Of a stretch of DNA of 62,138 nucleotides, positions 1,319 through 31,437 are shown piece after piece. Under the pieces are notes generated by a model. The model had not been told where the DNA came from. It was given only the letters and a program-made list of their open reading frames with translations, and did not search any database. Position 1 is the stretch's first letter, and the number at the start of each line of letters is the position of its first letter. The DNA is from an uncultured archaeon (GTDB lineage: Archaea > Asgardarchaeota > Thorarchaeia > Thorarchaeales > Thorarchaeaceae), in assembly GCA_964558645.1 (NCBI GenBank), contig CAZLEV010000015.1, positions 1 through 62,138 on the forward strand, given 5' to 3'. Both the position numbers and the translations under genes were made by a program.

Positions 1319-1326
1319 TTTCGACA

Positions 1327-4300
1327 CGCTCGCCTCGGACATTAGTAGCGGTGGGCTGAACACGTCGCCGAAGCTTCGTGCTTACACCCCCGCCCTATTA
1401 ACCTCGTCTTCTACGAGAGTCCTCGTTCATGGACACGCGTCACTGTCACCAGTCCCGCGTAGGACCAACCCGGTCCTTGCGTCCACAAAGTGAATGGCTA
1501 TTTTTACGGTCCGGCTTCCAGCTTAGATGCATTCAGCTGTTATCCGTTATGGCTTAGCTACCCGACAGTGCCCTTTCGGACAATCGGTACACCATTGGCC
1601 ACGACAATGCGTTCCTCTCGTACCGGCATCATCTTACCGGCAACCATTCAACAGTGCTAATAGATAGAAACCAACCTGTCTCGCAACGGTCTAAACCCAG
1701 CTCACGTTCGGTTTTAATCGGTGAGCACCCGCACCCTTCGGACCTTATGCAATCCGAGGATACCAAGAGCCGACATCGAGGAAGCAAGCCGCGCGGTCGA
1801 TAGGAACTCTAGCGCGCGACAACTCTGTTACCCCTGGGGTAAGTTTTCTGTCATTCCAACCACTCACAATGGGCCAGTTGGAGTTCGCTAGGCCAGACTT
1901 TCGTCTCGGGATCCGTTGCTTTGCGGGATCCCGTCAGCCGAGCTTATGCCCTTAATCTCAACGAGACGTTTCTGTCGCCTCTGAGCTCAGCTTTGGTCAG
2001 GGCTGATCTCCTGTCAGCCCTGTGCCGCCCCAGCCCAACTGCCTACCTGACGGTGTCCCTAGACTCACTTGGTCTAGGTTAGCCACCCCCAGACACATAG
2101 TCAGTGTTACATGGTCGCATTCCCACAGCCCGGAGACTGTGGTTCGACGCTCCTGACTACGCTCTGTATGTGCCCAGAGATGGCAACGACAGGCTGCGTA
2201 GTAAACCTCCGCAGGGACTTCTCTTCCCATTAGCACTACCAAGCCTGTTCGCTTGGGTGTAGTTTCACCAGAGCACTCCTGGGGACAGTGGGGACCTCAT
2301 TGCTCCCTTCATGCACGTCGGCATTTAACCGACAAGGCGTTTGGCTACCTTAAGAGACTCATAGTTAGTCCCGGCGTTAACCCGTGCTTGGACCCCTTCC
2401 GGAGTGTTAACATACGGGCACAGACCAGGATTCACTGACTGTACTAACGCTTACGCGCTCGCAGTCAGCTATGTTTGTATTAAACAGTTGGGACCCCTTA
2501 GTTGCTAAGACCTAGGAAAGCTTGCACTAACCCAGGCACGGCATATCCCGAAGTTACGCCGCTAATTGGCCGATTTCCCTCAGGAGGGTTGACTCTGATA
2601 CACCTTGGCCTTCTCAGCCAGGGAACCTGTGTCAGATCTGGGTACGGACTCGGAGAATTCTTCCGGACTCGTTTTTCAAGGTCACCAGGAATAGACCGAA
2701 CAGGTGTCCGACCACCTGCTATTCCACCTTTCGCCTGGTTCTCACCATTACGGTACTCGACAGGCTTATGATGTTAAATACGACGAGGGTCGTACTCGGT
2801 TTGTCCAGATGAGTCACAAGTCCGGCTTTGCGTTGCCGCGTGACGTATCTCCAAGGTTCAGGAATATTAACCTGATTCCCTTTCGTGACGCTCGTGTTAC
2901 GACGCCACTTAGGATCGACTAAGCTTCGGCTGACGACGCATTGCCGAAGAACCCTTTCCCTTTCGGTGACATGGATTCTCACCATGCTTCGCTGTTACTA
3001 CTGCCAGGATCATCAAATCCGGCCGGTCCACAGGACCTCACGGCCCCACTTCTACCCAACCGGATCGCTCCGCTACCGGATCACGCAGTATTACCTGCGT
3101 GCCGTGTGGTCTCGGTGGTCAGATTTAGCCCCGTCCATTTTCAAGGCCGAGAGCCTCGGTCTGTGAGCTGTTACGCTTTCGTTCGGGGATAGCTGCTTCT
3201 AAGCTCACCCCCAGACTGTCTTGGGCTCTCGACGCCCTTCTTCACCGCACTTATCTGACACTTAGGGACCTTAACCACACTCTCGGTTCTCCCCATCTCG
3301 GCCTGCCGGGCTTACCCCGGGCACCCGTCTCCCACCGTCTACGGTTCACGCAGCTTCGGAGTTTTCAGGAAGGTGGAACTCTTGACGAGTCCCTCGCCTA
3401 TCCGAAAGTGCTCTACACCACATGATACCTCAGGTAGGGCTTGGCTACGACCAACTTCGCGGAGAACGAGCAATCACCAGTCTAGATAAGCCTTTTACTC
3501 CTAGGCCCAGCTCAACGGAACGAGTTGCACGTCAGAACCCTTTCGGGCTTCCACCGAGCTTTCGCCCGGCTTCACCCTGGCCAGGCCTAGATCGACTGGT
3601 TTCTCGTGTCATGAGAGTGACTACGCGCACATTTCACACGCCGCCTCTCACCGGACGAACCGGCTGCAGGCATATTGGTTTCCCTTCGTTTACGACTTGA
3701 CGTCTTATCCTCGCCACGCTCATGAACTCCCTGGCCCGTGTTTCAAGACGGATGATGCAGACGCGATCCACTCAGATCCTACTCCAGGGTCCCCCCTGTT
3801 TCGTTCTCCGAGTATCTCCTCTTTTAGTCCGCATCCTTTGATTAGATTGCTGGTTTCAGGTGCTTTTCACCCCGCTTCCGCGGCGCTTTTCAACTTTCGC
3901 TCGCGCTACGTAGTGTGCTATCGGTTTGGTTGAGTATTTAGGCTTCGCAGATTGTGCCTGCGTCATTCACGCGAGAAGTCCGACCCGCGCTACTCTGGTA
4001 CCTGGGACATGCCTGTGGTTTACGTCTACGGGGGTATCACCCTCTCTGCCGCGTCGTTCCAGACGACTTTGACTTTGACACGTCGGCACTTGTCCCGGCC
4101 CTTACACCACATCTCCCGGAGCTCTTCGCTCAGGGATTCAGTTTGGCCTATTCCCCTTTCGCTCGCCGTTACTCGGGGAATCCCTTCTGGTTTCTTTTCC
4201 TGGGCATACTAAGATGCTTCAGTTCTGCCCGTACCCCTTCCAGATTTGACTCTGGAATCATGCAGGGTATTAACCCACATGTGGAAGTCCTATTCGGGAA

Positions 4301-4405
4301 CCCACGGATCAATGGCTTCATGCGCCTACCCGTGGCCTATATCGCAGCTTGTCGCGCCCTTCATCGGCTAACCAACCAAGTCATCCACCAACAACCGTTT
4401 AGCGA
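1327..4405 (-). rRNA. rrl: 23S rRNA (archaeal), unlinked from 16S and 5S
   Basis: Reverse complements of universal LSU motifs: sarcin-ricin region TTCCTCTCGTAC (~1612), CCGACATCGAGG (~1771), CTACCTTAAGAG (~2346), 5' region CCTTCATCGGC...CATCCACC (~4358-4389). Ends approximate. Confidence 0.98.
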
Positions 4406-4419
4406 ATTGCATGTCTAAT

Positions 4420-24823: not shown

Positions 24824-25597
24824 TCAACTTGCAGCCTGAGCTAGGAACTTGTCGTAACCCTTCTCCTCGAGTTCGGGAATGATATCCATATCTCCAGCAT
24901 AGGCTAGACGACCAGACTCTAGAATGTAGACCCTCTCGACCTCGACGAATTCCAACACATAACGGTGATGACTGATTATGACCATGGTAGAGTTCCCCTT
25001 CTCTTTCATAGCCTTCAGTTCGCGTCCAACAACTTTGAGCGAGTCATAATCAAGACCACTGTCAGGTTCATCCAAAAAGACCACATCCGGCCGCATGGAC
25101 AGGACTTGAAAGAGCTCACTTCGCTTCAGTTCCCCCCCTGAGAATCCCTCATTGAGGTCTCGGTCAGCAAGATTTTCGATTCCAAGTCGTTCAAAGTCAT
25201 CATAGAGCTCCTGCCGACACATACATGTCTCACCCATGAGTTCCTCATCCGGCTCTTTGCAGGAATAATCAGGACATATACGACAGATGAAATCCTCAAG
25301 CTTGACACCCGAGATAGCAGGAGGGGTCTGAAAGGCATAGGCAATACCCATCTTCGCGCGCTCTGTGATACTCTTGTCCAGTATCGATTCGCCTTTGTAG
25401 ATAATATCTCCACCCTTGACCTCGTACTCAGGAAGACCCATGACAGCCTTTGCCACAGTGGACTTTCCTGATGCATTGGGCCCAAGAACTGCATAGACTT
25501 TTCCGCGCTCAAACTGAAGATCAAGCCCTCGGAGAATAGGTATCCCGTTGGCTTCTACTCTCAGGCCTCTGATATCTAGGAGTACATCAGCTGTCAT
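24824..25597 (-). CDS. sufC: SufC (SmsC) ABC ATPase
   Basis: GPNASGKST, NEGFSGGELKR, LDEPDSGLD; adjacent to sufB. Confidence 0.92.
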   Translation of the reverse strand: MTADVLLDIRGLRVEANGIPILRGLDLQFERGKVYAVLGPNASGKSTVAKAVMGLPEYEVKGGDIIYKGESILDKSITERAKMGIAYAFQTPPAISGVKLEDFICRICPDYSCKEPDEELMGETCMCRQELYDDFERLGIENLADRDLNEGFSGGELKRSELFQVLSMRPDVVFLDEPDSGLDYDSLKVVGRELKAMKEKGNSTMVIISHHRYVLEFVEVERVYILESGRLAYAGDMDIIPELEEKGYDKFLAQAAS

Positions 25598-25664
25598 TCC
25601 AATCCACCAGGTCTTCTCTCAACTGCCAGATGTGTGATTTTAAGCGTGTTGCTGTGAAGAGATA

Positions 25665-26093
25665 CTACTTGGTGTATGTGCCCATCAACTGATCAGATTC
25701 GATTTTGTGTTCCTCACACTTATCTTTGAACGTATCTTTAGATACGCCTTCAAGACGGGGAACATCAAGCGCATAGAGAGTGAAGTAGTACCTATGTGTG
25801 CCAGATGGGGGAGCAGGTCCACCATATCTAGTGATCCCAAAGTCGCTCTCAACCTCAACTCCGCGGGGGTTCTCTCCCCTTGGTATCGAGCGAACCTCTG
25901 GGGGGATGCTATGTACTAACCAGTGTATCCAGTCACCAACTGGCGCATCAGGATCATTACACATGAGCGCGAAACTCTTGGTCCCTTCTGGTACGTTCGA
26001 CCATTCGAGGTGAGGGCTTAGATTATCATTGCGATAGGCACACATATCGGGGATTGGACCGCCGTGCTCGAAATCATCACTTCTTAAATCCAT
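25665..26093 (-). CDS. PEBP family (YbhB/YbcL)
   Basis: DPDAP, WIHW, YGGPAPPSGTHRY. Confidence 0.92.
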   Translation of the reverse strand: MDLRSDDFEHGGPIPDMCAYRNDNLSPHLEWSNVPEGTKSFALMCNDPDAPVGDWIHWLVHSIPPEVRSIPRGENPRGVEVESDFGITRYGGPAPPSGTHRYYFTLYALDVPRLEGVSKDTFKDKCEEHKIESDQLMGTYTK

Positions 26094-26169
26094 GGAACTC
26101 CACCTTCATCATACCTGACTAGTGAAACAGGGGCCTACTTGGTTCTTTCCAAAGTGGAAGGTTGGTACA

Positions 26170-26637
26170 TCATTCACGGATATCAGAAGAGGGAGAGATA
26201 CTCTCCGCCATATCAGTCAGCCAGTCTGCTGCCCACCTCACGTAGACATCACATCTGTTCTGGACATAGGGTTTCTCGCGAGCTGCGCCGGCTGGATTCA
26301 TCTCACCACGATCCATGGCTTTGAGGAACCTGCATCGCACAGTGCCCCAATCTTCTGTGAACTCTGTAATCATCCTGTTCACTAGTGATCGAGCCAAGGT
26401 ACGTTTCCTATCGAATTCATTGGGTGTTTCAGTACCATCAGATCCATAAATCAGACCGATGCACGCCGAGGCTCCACTCACGGCACCGCATATCTCCCCG
26501 GAACCTCCAATACCCCCGCCGAGTATGGAAGCAATCTTCATACATGATGCATTGAAGTTGGGTAAGGAAACCTCTCGGTCAACTCCAAGCATCACACTCT
26601 CAGCACAGTTGAAGGATAGACCGTCCCTAGTTTCCAT
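26170..26637 (-). CDS. C_GCAxxG_C_C putative redox protein
   Basis: NCAESV, ICGAVSG, VRC, NRC. Confidence 0.85.
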   Translation of the reverse strand: METRDGLSFNCAESVMLGVDREVSLPNFNASCMKIASILGGGIGGSGEICGAVSGASACIGLIYGSDGTETPNEFDRKRTLARSLVNRMITEFTEDWGTVRCRFLKAMDRGEMNPAGAAREKPYVQNRCDVYVRWAADWLTDMAESISPSSDIRE

Positions 26638-26758
26638 GTATACTCACGAAGATGCAGGCCTCGACATCATAACAAAAAAGTTCGTATTGTTACCTTCGCC
26701 TGCGGTCGAAGCAGCATGCTTAATACCCACTTGACACCAGCCAGAACGGGGAAGGACC

Positions 26759-27226
26759 TTGACTACTGTTCAACAATCGTTTGAGAACTTGATTGCGCTT
26801 GCAATCGAGAGAGAAGAGGAAGCCTATGAGTTTTATATGTCAGCTGCTGAAGAGGCTGAGACCCAGGCATCCACGAAACTCCTGAGAGAGCTTGCCCAAC
26901 AGGAGATAGGCCACAAAGAGAAGTTGAAGGCTGCACTCAAAGAGGATGTCTGCAGTACTTTCGGTTGCACACTGGAAGAGATGAGAGAGCTTAGTCTCGG
27001 GGACTACCTCAAGGACATCCCCTTGAAACCTTCTTCGTCTCCACAGGAGATCCTTATCGTCGCAATCAAGAGGGAAGAGGGGGCATTCCAGTTCTACAAG
27101 TCCCTATCTGAGTTGACAGAAGACCCAAGTCACCGAGTAGTATTCGAAACTCTGGCAAAGGAAGAACAGAATCACAAGCAGCGTCTCGAACGCATGTATG
27201 ACGATGTCTTCCAACCAGATATGTGA
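26759..27226 (+). CDS. Rubrerythrin/ferritin-like protein
   Basis: Twofold AI.REE.A..FY...EExxH pattern. Confidence 0.88.
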   Translation: MTTVQQSFENLIALAIEREEEAYEFYMSAAEEAETQASTKLLRELAQQEIGHKEKLKAALKEDVCSTFGCTLEEMRELSLGDYLKDIPLKPSSSPQEILIVAIKREEGAFQFYKSLSELTEDPSHRVVFETLAKEEQNHKQRLERMYDDVFQPDM

Positions 27227-27262: not shown

Positions 27263-28543
27263 CTACCTCTCATGCAGATTTGGTGCCGCAAGAAATGTAA
27301 GTCCGCGCTTGGTGAGCTCCGCAGCAGTCCGATTAAGTGAATTGTGCTTATCCAAGTAGTTGCGGCGGAGATAGTCCATCTCGCCTTTGTCAAGAATATC
27401 CTGCTTTGGACGGAAGTAATCCAGAATGTCACTGGGGTGCTCCCGCGTCTTATCAATCTCTGGAACCGCGCCCTCATGCTTCGCGCTTATGTTTTTTACA
27501 TGATCGGCAAGATCCAGAAGCTCATCCAGTCGGTCGTAGGGTTGTCTGACGATGCTCTTGTAGGTCTCCGTAATGTGATGCTCAATCCGAACTACATCTG
27601 TGAAGCCGAAACTCTTTCTTATGTACGCGGCCATCTCGATAGTCTCATTATTCACGCTGTTTGCCAGATTGAAGCCAATGAGAGGGGTCGTCCCATCATC
27701 TCGACTGAAGAGTTTTGCAGTCAGGAGGGTCCAGAGACAGGCGTAGGGATTGTCATTACCCATATAGACGCTGATCTTGAACTCTATGTCAATGCCAAGC
27801 TTGTGCATCATATATCCAATGAGAACACTTCCAGGATTGATGTTCAGAACCTGCTTGACTCCGTATGTGGTGTAGTAGTGAAGATACTCGTCAGCCCAGT
27901 CTATTGGAAAACGATTGGGCATACCAACTCCGCCAAAATAACCAGTGATAGTCTCAGGACCACCAAGATGGATGTTTGTTGGCAAACCATCTGGGCCTGG
28001 TTTGGTTCCTTTGGTATCCAATGTTTCCACATAAGAGGATCCAACAACCTGCATCGCAGCAGCAAAGGCCAGAATCTGGTTGTCTTCTACTTGCTCAGCC
28101 ATGTTTCGTACACGGATGAACCTACCCGGCATCAGATCTTGATTCTCGATCGCCACTTTGGCCTCGTCGATAAGCCAGGGGAAATACTGGCAGGCGCTGA
28201 TTTCTAGAGTCACAGCGAAACTATCGTCGAAGTCCATTGACTCTACCTTGTCACCCAGTATCTTCCGCCGATACTCGGGGACGGAAATGAAGGCACCGTC
28301 ATCTCGTTGTTCCTGGAGCCAGAGTATGTCCTCTGTGAAAGGGGAATCGGCCTCTTCAAGACGCGCCATCAGATTCTCAAGCTTACGAGCCTCTCTGGCC
28401 TTTCGGTTTATCTCGTCGACACCACCGTGCTTTTCTACTACCTCAAGAATGTCATTGACAAGAGGGTTATCCTCCTCAAGGAGGAAGCCATTGACCTCTT
28501 CGAGTCGCCCGTTTGTGATATTGAGTCTGTGCCTGTCGGTCAT
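27263..28543 (-). CDS. Conserved hypothetical protein (~426 aa)
   Basis: Long ORF with enzyme-like conserved-looking blocks; function not recognised. Confidence 0.8.
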   Translation of the reverse strand: MTDRHRLNITNGRLEEVNGFLLEEDNPLVNDILEVVEKHGGVDEINRKAREARKLENLMARLEEADSPFTEDILWLQEQRDDGAFISVPEYRRKILGDKVESMDFDDSFAVTLEISACQYFPWLIDEAKVAIENQDLMPGRFIRVRNMAEQVEDNQILAFAAAMQVVGSSYVETLDTKGTKPGPDGLPTNIHLGGPETITGYFGGVGMPNRFPIDWADEYLHYYTTYGVKQVLNINPGSVLIGYMMHKLGIDIEFKISVYMGNDNPYACLWTLLTAKLFSRDDGTTPLIGFNLANSVNNETIEMAAYIRKSFGFTDVVRIEHHITETYKSIVRQPYDRLDELLDLADHVKNISAKHEGAVPEIDKTREHPSDILDYFRPKQDILDKGEMDYLRRNYLDKHNSLNRTAAELTKRGLTFLAAPNLHER

Positions 28544-28732
28544 GTCCCAGCCATCCTGTGAACAACCATCAGAGGACTGTACTACCAAATAAACGATTCT
28601 GACAGAGCGATGAGAGAGTTGGCAGAAAATATCTTCATGAAATCACAGATCAGACTGAGAATCCCCAATCGGTGGCATGTCGGTCGAGAGCAGGACAAGA
28701 TATGTCAGCCCTGATTGGGAGCTGACGAGAAC

Positions 28733-29335
28733 TCAGACCTTCCTTAGATGGACAACGGAATCCTCGACCATATGTTCGATTTCTACTGGGGCCTCGCTTC
28801 GTCCAACGTTAAGGCCCCTCAGGTAGTTTCTCACATTGGGTCCCACCACTACTGCAATGATGCCGCCTGCGGTAACCTGAATCCAGTTCACAAATAGGAG
28901 TTCCTCCAAAGCCACAGCCGGACCGAAGAGTACATACTCAAAGAAATAGTATCCAGCCAACATGGCAAGAGCTCCAAGAATGATTCCAGCGATATCCCAG
29001 GGTGTAATCGTTGATGAATCCCTCGATCTAACAGCAAGCAATCCAACAAGAAGGCCCTCTGTTCCCTTAACCACGAAGGTTATCGGCGCAAAATGGCTGA
29101 AGCCCAGGGCAACATCAGCAAACGCCGAGCCTACACCACCTGCAAAGAAACCGCCAACAGGACCAAGCAATAGTCCGCTAATCATGACAAGTGAGTCGCC
29201 AAAATTCAGATACCCCGTACTGGTTGGAAAGGGAATGGATATGATCATTGTTGCCACAGTGGTCAGTCCAGTGAATATAGCAGTCAGTACCAAGTAAACA
29301 GTGGGATTCAATGTGCTTGCACTCCATCGCTTCAA
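28733..29335 (-). CDS. ECF transporter S component
   Basis: GYLNFGDS, GGVGSAFAD, TFVVKG. Confidence 0.88.
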   Translation of the reverse strand: MKRWSASTLNPTVYLVLTAIFTGLTTVATMIISIPFPTSTGYLNFGDSLVMISGLLLGPVGGFFAGGVGSAFADVALGFSHFAPITFVVKGTEGLLVGLLAVRSRDSSTITPWDIAGIILGALAMLAGYYFFEYVLFGPAVALEELLFVNWIQVTAGGIIAVVVGPNVRNYLRGLNVGRSEAPVEIEHMVEDSVVHLRKV

Positions 29336-29429
29336 TCTGTTCTTCCTCCGTCCTGCAGGTCAGCAGGGACAGGCACAACTCGCCCATAGATATATATAAG
29401 TTTGAGCCTATATATAGGCTCGATTCTCT

Positions 29430-30926
29430 ATGTCTTTCCTTATTGACTTCCGTTGTGCGTCTTGCGGCCATCGGCAAACCCCAGACTCTTACTACGTAAT
29501 CTGTTCGCGCTGTGGCGGAATCCTGCACGCAGAGTACAATCTCGATAGCGCAAGAGAGAAGATCAGCAGAGAGATATTCCGAGGTCGGAAGAAGAAGCTT
29601 TGGAAATACCACGAGATCTTACCCATACTGGACTCTGATGGACAGGTCAGTCTTGGTGAAGGAAACACGTTTCTTCAGAGAGGGAATCGATTGGCAGAAC
29701 AACTAGCCATAAAGAGCCTATACCTGAAGGACGAAACAAGAAATCCCACAGGGTCTTTCTTGGACCGAGGCGTTTCTGTAGAGATGACCAAAGCAAAGCA
29801 GGTCGGTCGGACGGGAGTGTCCTGCGGAAGTACGGGTAATCTTGCGGCCTCATTGGTTGCCTATGCAGCACGAGCGGGAATGGAGAGCAAGGTCTTCATT
29901 GCACAGAGAGGGAACGTGGACATCGGAAAGTTCCATCAGATCCTCGCATACGGCGCAGAGGTAGAGATTGTGGCCAACCATCAGGATGCAATGAAGAGAG
30001 CAGCAGGGGTCAGTCACGAATATCACAACATCCTGCCCTACAGTCCGTTCTTCCTTGAGGGCATAAAGACCACAGGAATTGAGGTAGTAGAGCAACTGGA
30101 TTGGGAGAACCCTGATTGGATTGTACTTCCGATGGGTAATGGTGGACACCTGTCGATGACTTGGCGAGGCCTGCAGGAGCTAGAACATCTCGGCCTTATT
30201 GATGAAGTGACAACCCGTCTAGTAGGAGTTCAGGCTGCAGGATGTGCACCTATCGTTGAGGCCTTTGCGTCCAAGAGCAAGAGAATAGAACCGGTAGAGG
30301 CCCAGTCTACAGTGGCCCTAGATATCGGTGTTGAGAATCCATCTTGCGGGCGCCTTGCCTTGGAGGCTCTTCGAGCGTCCGGCGGCGAGGCAGTAGCTGT
30401 GAGCGATGATGAGATATTGGACGGCGTGAGACAACTCGCCAGCCGCGAGGGAATCTTTGCGGAACCTGCAGCGGCCACGACGATTGCAGCGCTGCACCAC
30501 CTCGTGGGAGAGGGCATCATCCACCGAAATGACCGGGTGGTCTGCCTGATCACAGGGACGGGGTTGAAGTATCCAGATGTAACACGTGCCCTCGTGAAGG
30601 GGCGAGGAAAACTGGAGTATCTCCTCAGCAGAATAGAGGGACGAGGATATACAACTGAGATTGGACAGACTAAGCAGTACATCCTGAAGATTCTGTCCGA
30701 AGGCGAATCGTATGGATATGACATCTGGAAGACCCTTGCAGAGCGATTCGGTGTCAAGATCAAGGTGCCAAGCGTCTACCAACATCTCTCCGAGCTCAGG
30801 AGTAGTGGACTAATCGTGGAAACACACTCTAAACTCAGTGCCGAAAGACGACGACGCAACTACTACGACCTATCGGATCGTGGAAGATGGACGCTTGACC
30901 AGTTGGAGAAGATGTCGCACGAGTAG
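29430..30926 (+). CDS. Threonine synthase-like protein (PLP Lys replaced by Leu) fused to a C-terminal PadR wHTH
   Basis: Zn ribbon, SLGEGNT, NPTGSFLDRG, STGNLAAS, ITGTGLK; tail ILKILSEGESYGYDI...VYQHLSEL...RRNYYDLSDRG. Confidence 0.88.
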   Translation: MSFLIDFRCASCGHRQTPDSYYVICSRCGGILHAEYNLDSAREKISREIFRGRKKKLWKYHEILPILDSDGQVSLGEGNTFLQRGNRLAEQLAIKSLYLKDETRNPTGSFLDRGVSVEMTKAKQVGRTGVSCGSTGNLAASLVAYAARAGMESKVFIAQRGNVDIGKFHQILAYGAEVEIVANHQDAMKRAAGVSHEYHNILPYSPFFLEGIKTTGIEVVEQLDWENPDWIVLPMGNGGHLSMTWRGLQELEHLGLIDEVTTRLVGVQAAGCAPIVEAFASKSKRIEPVEAQSTVALDIGVENPSCGRLALEALRASGGEAVAVSDDEILDGVRQLASREGIFAEPAAATTIAALHHLVGEGIIHRNDRVVCLITGTGLKYPDVTRALVKGRGKLEYLLSRIEGRGYTTEIGQTKQYILKILSEGESYGYDIWKTLAERFGVKIKVPSVYQHLSELRSSGLIVETHSKLSAERRRRNYYDLSDRGRWTLDQLEKMSHE

Positions 30927-31044: not shown

Positions 31045-31437
31045 ATGGCAGATAAGAGTTGGTTGCAGACAGACGATTGGAAAAACGAGAAGCATGTACC
31101 CGTGATCGAGTGTTCCGACGAAGTGAAGAAGGGCGAACTGGTGGAGGTTACGGTATCCGTTGGGAAGGAGATACCCCATCCCAATACCACCGCTCATCAC
31201 ATCAAGTGGTGCGATTTGTTCTTCTGGCCTGAAGGAGAGAAGTTCCCATACGAGATCGGATACACCAGCTTCGATGCACACGGTGCCTCCGTGAAAGGCG
31301 CAGACACAAGCACGATTTATGCAGAGCCTCAGACGAAATATGTGTTCAAGACCGACAAACCTGGCACATTGATGGCCACGTCATATTGTAACATCCACGG
31401 ATTGTGGAAAGACGAGAAGAAGCTCAAGGTCAAGTAG
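31045..31437 (+). CDS. sor: Superoxide reductase (neelaredoxin, class II)
   Basis: EKHVPVI, HPNTTAHHI, YCNIHGLW. Confidence 0.93.
   Translation: MADKSWLQTDDWKNEKHVPVIECSDEVKKGELVEVTVSVGKEIPHPNTTAHHIKWCDLFFWPEGEKFPYEIGYTSFDAHGASVKGADTSTIYAEPQTKYVFKTDKPGTLMATSYCNIHGLWKDEKKLKVK

Follow-up and report, generated by a model that had tools for sequence, protein, structure and literature searches.

We describe a gene from an uncultured archaeon of the family Thorarchaeaceae (Thorarchaeia, Asgardarchaeota) that very probably encodes a transcription factor and not an enzyme. The gene occupies positions 29430–30926 of a 62,138-nucleotide stretch of contig CAZLEV010000015.1 (assembly GCA_964558645.1), which we refer to throughout as the window. 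Its product joins a domain with the fold of threonine synthase (ThrC), from which the lysine that binds pyridoxal phosphate (PLP) has been lost, to a PadR-type winged helix-turn-helix (wHTH). Judging by its sequence and gene context, we put the probability that the protein is a one-component regulator that responds to a vitamin B6 vitamer and controls B6 supply genes at roughly 60%. A fuller account holds that an archaeal family of B6 regulators arose when a fold-type II enzyme acquired a PadR domain and only later lost its lysine, with free PLP acting as a reversible co-repressor at two TATA-like boxes; this we regard as an even bet. That the liganded form is the one that represses is more tentative. 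The initial annotation of the locus had proposed that a dead enzyme domain senses either PLP and other B6 vitamers or phosphohomoserine/threonine, and that it regulates a divergently transcribed transporter. Between these two ligand options we favor B6, because the sole solved relative of the transporter subunit is a pyridoxamine transporter, the family is alternatively partnered with pdxS-pdxT, and no PdxS is found in the genome. Phosphohomoserine and threonine are disfavored because the corresponding Arg and Thr of ThrC are replaced by Phe and Leu.

The regulator gene is an intact open reading frame, and its PadR domain follows the PALP-family (ThrC-like) domain in frame, as the initial annotation had it. 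The PadR domain scores 54.5 bits against a PF03551 cut-off of 27 and matches the PDB entries 5DYM and 3L7W. An N-terminal zinc ribbon precedes the ThrC-like domain, and the alignment columns of its four cysteines are conserved in the fusions and in the nearest ThrC group alike. An AlphaFold2 (AF2) model built on 44 relatives has a predicted local distance difference test (pLDDT) score of 90.9 and a predicted template modeling (TM) score of 0.80, with a disordered linker at residues 404–409 between the two modules. The PadR region of the model consists of helices at residues 413–458, wing strands at 462–481, and a C-terminal helix at 483–497. A Foldseek search with this model superposes the large domain on ThrC structures with target-normalized TM scores of 0.85–0.89 and a root-mean-square deviation of about 2.2 Å, while the whole ThrC and PadR architecture finds no match among solved structures. 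The protein also passes the cut-offs of two threonine synthase hidden Markov models, NF006050 (336 versus 303 bits) and TIGR00260 (203 versus 167 bits), and source records bear the name threonine synthase.

Despite passing these cut-offs, the regulator has replaced the SFKDR lysine and both the Thr and the Arg of the substrate site. The codons TCT TTC TTG GAC CGA, at 29754–29768, read SFLDR, and in a HMMER alignment Leu111 coincides with the Schiff-base lysine of SFKDR in the solved ThrCs 2ZSJ, 2D1F, 6CGQ, and 1UIM. All of the 120 nearest clusters at 90% identity, which come from Thor-, Loki-, Hod-, and Odinarchaeia, carry both PALP and PadR domains. Wherever the motif is readable among these close homologues (115 of 115), the lysine site is occupied by Ile or Leu and never by Lys. 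A sequencing error, initially judged unlikely, and chance are both ruled out by its absence from all 115. A broader alignment of 269 sequences combined the nearest 90%-identity clusters with the 150 best cluster representatives at 50% identity. Its 183 PadR-tailed members have 117 Ile, 38 Leu, 7 Val, 5 Met, 4 Arg, 3 Thr, 2 Lys, and singletons at the lysine site; Lys is present in 84 of the 86 relatives that have no tail. In the main fusion clade the count is 0 of 169, and a column comparison across these same 169 fusions finds no compensating conserved Lys. Orthologues therefore do not retain the lysine, and its loss, first noticed in this single gene, is a family trait that is tightly coupled to the PadR fusion.

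The order of events can be approached through a FastTree phylogeny restricted to the ThrC domain. Here the fusions group in a single clade (local support 94), next to the Lys-bearing ThrCs. Within it, a small basal subclade (support 99) comprises two Lys members, Arg members, and one Ser member, and a large subclade (support 99), to which the regulator belongs, is wholly Lys-less. Because the Lys, Arg, and Ser members are basal and the large subclade is entirely without lysine, the tree fits a history in which the PadR fusion came first and the lysine loss second, given an assumed root and FastTree supports that are soft. The two Lys-keeping fusions, P0171 and P0186, are basal members. The contigs that carry them and the Arg-type fusion P0163 are either too short to inform or bear unrelated neighbors (GINS, NiFe hydrogenase). 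The fusions as a whole range over Asgard archaea, Bathyarchaeia, and Nitrososphaerota. One Thorarchaeial genome (G134) has two full-length Lys-less fusions, on contigs 68 and 14, which are 56% and 55% identical to the query.

To describe the pocket, we took the 83 nearest Lys-bearing ThrCs as reference, selected the 54 columns in which their conservation reaches 85% or more, and compared these columns in the 169 fusions. Replacement is complete in the lysine column only, with partial relaxation in five more. Conservation of 96–100% in the fusions is seen for F110, D112, and R113, for the Gly and Asn of STGN (G136 and N137), for E210, G211, K213, and T214, and for two further segments, the phosphate loop G236-x-G238 (GNGGH here) and the strand T375-G-x-G-L-K380. 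The substrate site has a different history. The position of Thr88 in ThrC (Thermus thermophilus numbering) is Leu138 here and Leu in 145 of the 169 fusions, and that of Arg160 is Phe208 here, Phe in 129 fusions, and Arg in none. Solved bacterial ThrCs have Thr and Arg at these two positions in four cases out of four. Because the PLP-site residues are so highly conserved and Thr and Arg have given way to Leu and Phe, we read the pocket as one in which the cofactor half is preserved and the substrate half has turned hydrophobic. The initial statement that the rest of the fold is intact thus holds for the fold, as modeled, and for the cofactor site, and fails for the substrate site. The genome encodes two further ThrC-like proteins with SFKDR, of 441 amino acids (contig 2) and 385 amino acids (contig 18), and threonine synthesis can therefore do without the regulator gene.

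The divergent neighbor of the regulator is, as first annotated, an energy-coupling factor (ECF) S-component, which we regard as the probable regulated B6 importer. It scores 106.8 bits against a PF07155 cut-off of 26.7 and is the sole gene in the genome above that cut-off. Its only PDB match at E values up to 1 is chain S of 4HZU (E 5e-10). This chain is HmpT/PdxU2 of Lactobacillus brevis; mass spectrometry showed that a compound extracted from the protein was pyridoxamine, and the genomic context of this HmpT indicates B6 (PMC4860826). PdxU and PdxU2 are both PF07155/COG4720 proteins (PMC9997740). Six conserved pocket residues are listed for HmpT, namely E41, H84, Q87, Y120, N140, and Q143 (PMC4860826); the corresponding residues of the S-component are, in the same order, D47, K90, E93, Y129, N150, and Q153.

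This gene pairing is widely conserved. A PF07155 S-component lies directly upstream of the fusion, and divergent from it, in 35 of 43 loci, among them loci of Thor-, Loki-, and Hodarchaea, Bathyarchaeia, and Nitrososphaerota. The proposed link between regulator and transporter gains support from this recurrence over three archaeal phyla and from a conserved operator that contains the palindrome noted initially. The only alternative conserved partners of the fusion are pdxS-pdxT. In the Asgard genome G041, pdxS (E 2e-97) and pdxT (E 4e-50) lie divergently to the fusion, with the operator boxes in the spacer, and in the Asgard genome G007, pdxS (E 8e-101) and pdxT (E 1e-58) follow the fusion on the same strand. 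No threonine- or methionine-pathway gene appears as a conserved neighbor in the loci examined. Going by homology, the conserved partners of the fusion family are either a B6-type importer or PLP synthase.

We derived a predicted operator by aligning the divergent spacers of 32 distinct loci. It is bipartite, with box 1 (ATATATAAG) and box 2 (CCTATATATAGG) separated by six unspecified bases. Between 18 and 21 of the 21 specified positions are matched in 28 of the 32 loci, including all 21 at the Bathyarchaeial locus, and the gap between the boxes is 6 bp in 31 of the 32 best matches. The boxes carry 1.73 bits of information per position versus 0.23 in the flanks, and the operator lies 30–73 bp upstream of the regulator start codon; for the 28 loci just mentioned, the site is placed at 12–50 bp from that codon. 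The palindrome of the initial annotation, GAGCCTATATATAGGCTC, was found in the spacer as an 18-bp perfect palindrome; it corresponds to box 2, with its 12-bp core, extended by three symmetric bases on each side. On the protein side, the PadR helix motif VYQHL (Y450, Q451, H452) is near-invariant in the fusions and presumably forms the recognition helix. A near-invariant helix thus matches an invariant operator, and we count this co-conservation in favor of the proposed regulator. A sigma-70-type promoter scan, irrelevant for an archaeon, yielded nothing above shuffled sequences.

The distribution of the motif was examined in the 3.63-Mb genome (50% GC). The full operator motif is unique in the genome, and its best non-self match reaches 16 of 21 positions. 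The sequence CCTATATATAGG occurs once, and TATATATA occurs ten times, two of these at the operator. The operator is also kept beside the regulator where the neighboring gene is pdxS (19 of 21 positions) or is unrelated (17 of 21, at a Nitrososphaerales locus), as seen at loci L043 and L130. Because the motif stays with the regulator whatever its neighbor and is unique in the genome, it has the character of a specific site tied to the regulator gene and not of a general promoter element. A wider regulon was considered and set aside: in a scan of 25 pdxS loci from 24 Asgard genomes, the motif appeared only at the regulator-adjacent pdxS of G041. In genome G038, which represents the Arg-type basal clade of fusions, the upstream regions of the fusion and of pdxS share no motif. 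Separately, a small PadR gene (146-residue frame) on contig 2, at about 413110–413500, is preceded, at a distance of about 165 bp, by ATTATATATAAG. This sequence, which resembles box 1, contains one of the ten genomic TATATATA sites and may be a related operator of the PadR kind.

The B6 status of the organism is in keeping with a need for import. A search for PdxS gave no PF01680 match in this 92.8%-complete genome, and the same search was positive in 10 control genomes. Among 151 sampled Asgard genomes, PdxS was found in 24, and in none of the 26 that belong to the same family; full-length fusions occur in at least 51 of the 151. With PdxS found neither here nor in any of the 26 sampled family genomes, the pattern fits an organism that depends on imported B6, though absence from incomplete genomes is no proof. 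The genome contains at least 10 PALP-family genes and three EcfT/CbiQ homologues, none of the latter adjacent to the S-component. PdxT and a PdxK-type kinase are represented by sub-threshold matches alone. Should unphosphorylated vitamers be imported, the kinase step would lack an assigned gene.

In the mechanism that we propose for B6 control, the sensor pocket would bind a B6 vitamer without a covalent link, with PLP or another phosphorylated form the likeliest, and hydrophobic side chains would fill the substrate half of the site. The two C-terminal PadR winged helices of a dimer would bind the two TATA-like boxes, which measure about 18 bp from center to center, and the operator would overlie both divergent core promoters within the spacer. 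Were box 1 to act as TATA for the regulator gene, its transcript would begin about 4 bp beyond box 2. The loci fall into a -38 class with a very short leader and a -50 class whose leader has a GGTGA-like ribosome site, and the assignment of box 1 as TATA fits both. Box 2 would then lie between this TATA and the regulator start, and by symmetry box 2 may serve as the TATA of the S-component, for which box 1 would occupy the corresponding position. A ThrC-type dimer that spaces its two PadR domains could span the two boxes and keep TBP/TFB or RNA polymerase off either promoter. Under ample B6, the ligand-bound protein would sit on the operator and switch off its own gene together with that of the S-component, or with pdxS-pdxT in organisms that make B6. 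The logic would be negative feedback on B6 supply. End-product repression of this kind is the most economical scheme because both partner functions, import and synthesis, supply B6. An activator role like that of PdxR is also possible.

Several points weigh against B6 control as we have drawn it. Characterized small PadR proteins usually leave DNA on ligand binding, a behavior that produces induction and not feedback repression. The TATA-like boxes could partly mirror promoter elements rather than contacts with the regulator, and the operator was not found upstream of unlinked pdxS genes in 22 other Asgard genomes. For the transporter, PF07155 also takes in RibU-type riboflavin carriers. Relative to HmpT, three of the six pocket residues are identical and one is a conservative change, and H84 and Q87 are replaced by Lys and Glu; from these differences, the exact B6 vitamer carried by the S-component is uncertain. 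With no PdxK-type kinase above threshold, the salvage route that would follow import is incomplete as annotated. Finally, the argument from the substrate site assumes that Thr88 and Arg160 of T. thermophilus ThrC are the residues that hold the phosphate and the carboxylate of the substrate, which we take to be the case.

The alternative that survives best is a regulator with a ligand other than B6, such as threonine, homoserine, O-phosphohomoserine, or a PLP-amino-acid adduct, with the S-component importing that compound or its precursor. The fold does derive from ThrC, and the substrate assignment of the S-component is putative, with half of the HmpT pocket residues differing. Nevertheless, we consider an amino-acid ligand unlikely. 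The Arg and Thr of the solved ThrC substrate site are Phe and Leu in this protein, threonine- and methionine-pathway genes are not among the conserved neighbors, and where the importer is not the partner, pdxS-pdxT are the only conserved ones.

Somewhat less likely again is a ThrC-like domain that binds no ligand and serves as a dimerization scaffold for PadR, in a repressor that is constitutive or controlled in some other way. ThrC enzymes are dimeric, and pseudoenzyme domains are often structural, as is generally known for such families. A scaffold does not readily account for the cofactor-site residues F110, D112, R113, G136, N137, G236, G238, T375, G376, G378, and K380, which are 96–100% conserved across phyla, or for the restriction of the lysine-site replacement itself to I, L, V, or M. 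We expect the pocket to have a ligand because the conservation of the cofactor site is hard to explain otherwise.

Two further alternatives can be dealt with briefly. Control of the uptake of hydroxymethylpyrimidine (HMP), a thiamine precursor, is quite improbable. Two source records do call homologues "thiamine precursor transporter HmpT", and HMP is similar in shape to pyridoxine, but the HmpT of 4HZU carries pyridoxamine and has a B6 genomic context (PMC4860826), the other partner genes are pdxS-pdxT and not thi genes, and the sensor fold is a PLP fold. The notion that the protein is a working threonine synthase or related PLP enzyme, acting through another lysine or free PLP and using its PadR tail for autoregulation, has the NF006050 score and the two Lys-keeping basal fusions in its favor, but it is scarcely credible with Lys in 0 of 169 main-clade members, no conserved substitute for it, the substrate-site Arg and Thr gone, and two Lys-bearing ThrC-like genes elsewhere in the genome.

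Our preferred reading, a B6-responsive regulator of B6 supply, has a clear counterpart in Bacteria. There, PdxR responds to PLP by controlling pdxST, the genes for PLP supply, and governs its own expression from a divergent promoter (PMC5320631, PMC9997740). Like the bacterial MocR regulators (PdxR, GabR, TauR, and PhpR), the archaeal protein combines the fold of a PLP enzyme, as a putative sensor, with a wHTH, and like PdxR it has B6 genes as partners and a divergent promoter with proposed autoregulation, although here these features are deduced from the genes. The two are built differently. In MocR proteins, a GntR-type wHTH at the N terminus is joined to an aminotransferase domain of fold type I in which the PLP lysine is kept, whereas in this protein a Lys-less ThrC domain of fold type II is joined to a C-terminal PadR domain. 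It is archaeal, and beyond the generic wHTH it has no sequence relationship to MocR. No membership criterion places it in that family, and it is best viewed as a functional analogue of PdxR/MocR. Joining a wHTH to a PLP-fold sensor of enzyme origin is a known principle, here realized with different parts and in a different domain of life.

Comparison with the parent families gives a similar picture. With ThrC (TIGR00260, NF006050; 2ZSJ, 1UIM, 6CGQ, 2D1F), the protein shares the fold, an identity of about 36–38%, and the archaeal-type zinc ribbon. It departs from ThrC in the changes of Lys to Leu or Ile, Thr to Leu, and Arg to Phe, in the added PadR domain, and in a B6 gene context that takes the place of the threonine pathway. 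With PadR and LmrR (PF03551), it shares the wHTH and C-terminal helix and, in all likelihood, dimeric binding to a symmetric operator and autoregulation. Known PadR proteins are small (about 110–180 residues) and bind ligand at the dimer interface, whereas the ligand site proposed here lies in a separate, enzyme-derived domain of 390 residues. One existing model, NF004170 (PRK05638, "threonine synthase"), spans both ThrC and PadR in its 442 positions. The query matches it end to end at 281 bits, below the cut-off of 421, and the basal Lys/Arg/Ser subclade fits it, with P0163 (Arg at the lysine site) scoring 452. The family name is probably wrong for these basal members too. The S-component resembles HmpT/PdxU2 (4HZU chain S) in keeping Y120, N140, and Q143 and in having Asp for E41, and differs from it at H84 and Q87, in being archaeal, and in the absence of adjacent ECF module genes.

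The features discussed here are collected in Table 1.

Table 1. Coordinates of the regulator gene, its parts, and the adjacent features within the window.
Feature	Position	Strand	Remarks
Regulator gene	29430–30926	+	Intact ORF, 498 aa: zinc ribbon, Lys-less ThrC-like sensor domain (putative), linker, PadR wHTH
Four-Cys zinc ribbon, N-terminal (C9, C12, C25, C28; residues 9–28)	29454–29513	+	
PALP/ThrC fold-type II PLP domain, residues 73–376	29646–30557	+	PF00291 E 3e-67
Leu111 codon TTG, Schiff-base lysine position	29760–29762	+	HMMER alignment
PadR wHTH, residues 418–490	30681–30899	+	PF03551 E 1e-14, in frame with PALP
Bipartite operator (predicted), ATATATAAG-N6-CCTATATATAGG	29392–29418		In 94-bp divergent spacer, conserved across loci
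18-bp perfect palindrome, GAGCCTATATATAGGCTC	29404–29421		
ECF S-component, HmpT/PdxU2-like, probable regulated B6 importer	28733–29335	-	PF07155 E 2e-30
Conserved 441-aa protein downstream of S-component	27263–28588	-	No Pfam/NCBIfam match

The 441-residue protein follows the S-component in 15 loci, including two pairs of mutual duplicates, and the two genes may or may not share one transcription unit. It is single-copy in the genome, and its homologues are very numerous (more than 8000 matches) and conserved to an unusual degree (75–80% identical). Sequence searches against Pfam, NCBIfam, and the PDB gave no match, and its Atlas neighbors were uninformative. The AF2 model has a pLDDT of 67 and alternating strands and helices, and Foldseek returns only weak TIM-barrel-like matches (E at least 0.006), several of them PLP- or B12-dependent aminomutases or decarboxylases. 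A role in B6 salvage, given the missing PdxK, is conceivable but unsupported. The regulator and its S-component are surrounded by a conserved redox and iron-sulfur neighborhood (24824–27226 and about 31046–31437) whose order is common to Thor and Loki loci. It includes a C_GCAxxG_C_C protein (26170–26637), a rubrerythrin (26759–27226), and, just 3' of the regulator, a superoxide reductase with a desulfoferrodoxin domain (about 31046–31437). In relatives, genes for SufBD and an ABC ATPase are located upstream, and this neighborhood has no evident functional tie to B6. The window also holds a complete archaeal 23S rRNA gene on the reverse strand (1323–4412, 2499 bits); no tRNA gene and no other Rfam family above its gathering score was found in it.

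B6 transporters are poorly known in prokaryotes (PMC9997740), and in the literature covered, which takes in little of the subscription journals, we found no description of the ThrC-PadR architecture or of an archaeal B6 regulator. One consequence concerns annotation. Such proteins are called threonine synthase in hundreds of database entries and by one or more NCBIfam "equivalog" models, and this mislabeling inflates the threonine-synthesis capacity inferred in metabolic reconstructions of Asgard archaea. A second concerns the evolution of sensors from enzymes, which appears in this family to have proceeded by fusion, followed by loss of the covalent cofactor link and filling in of the substrate pocket. 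The short operator, invariant across phyla, makes the regulon directly testable. The sampled Asgard genomes are mostly without PdxS and should therefore need imported B6. If our reading is true, the fusion and its neighboring S-component would provide a candidate B6 regulator and a candidate B6 transporter across much of the Asgard and TACK archaea.

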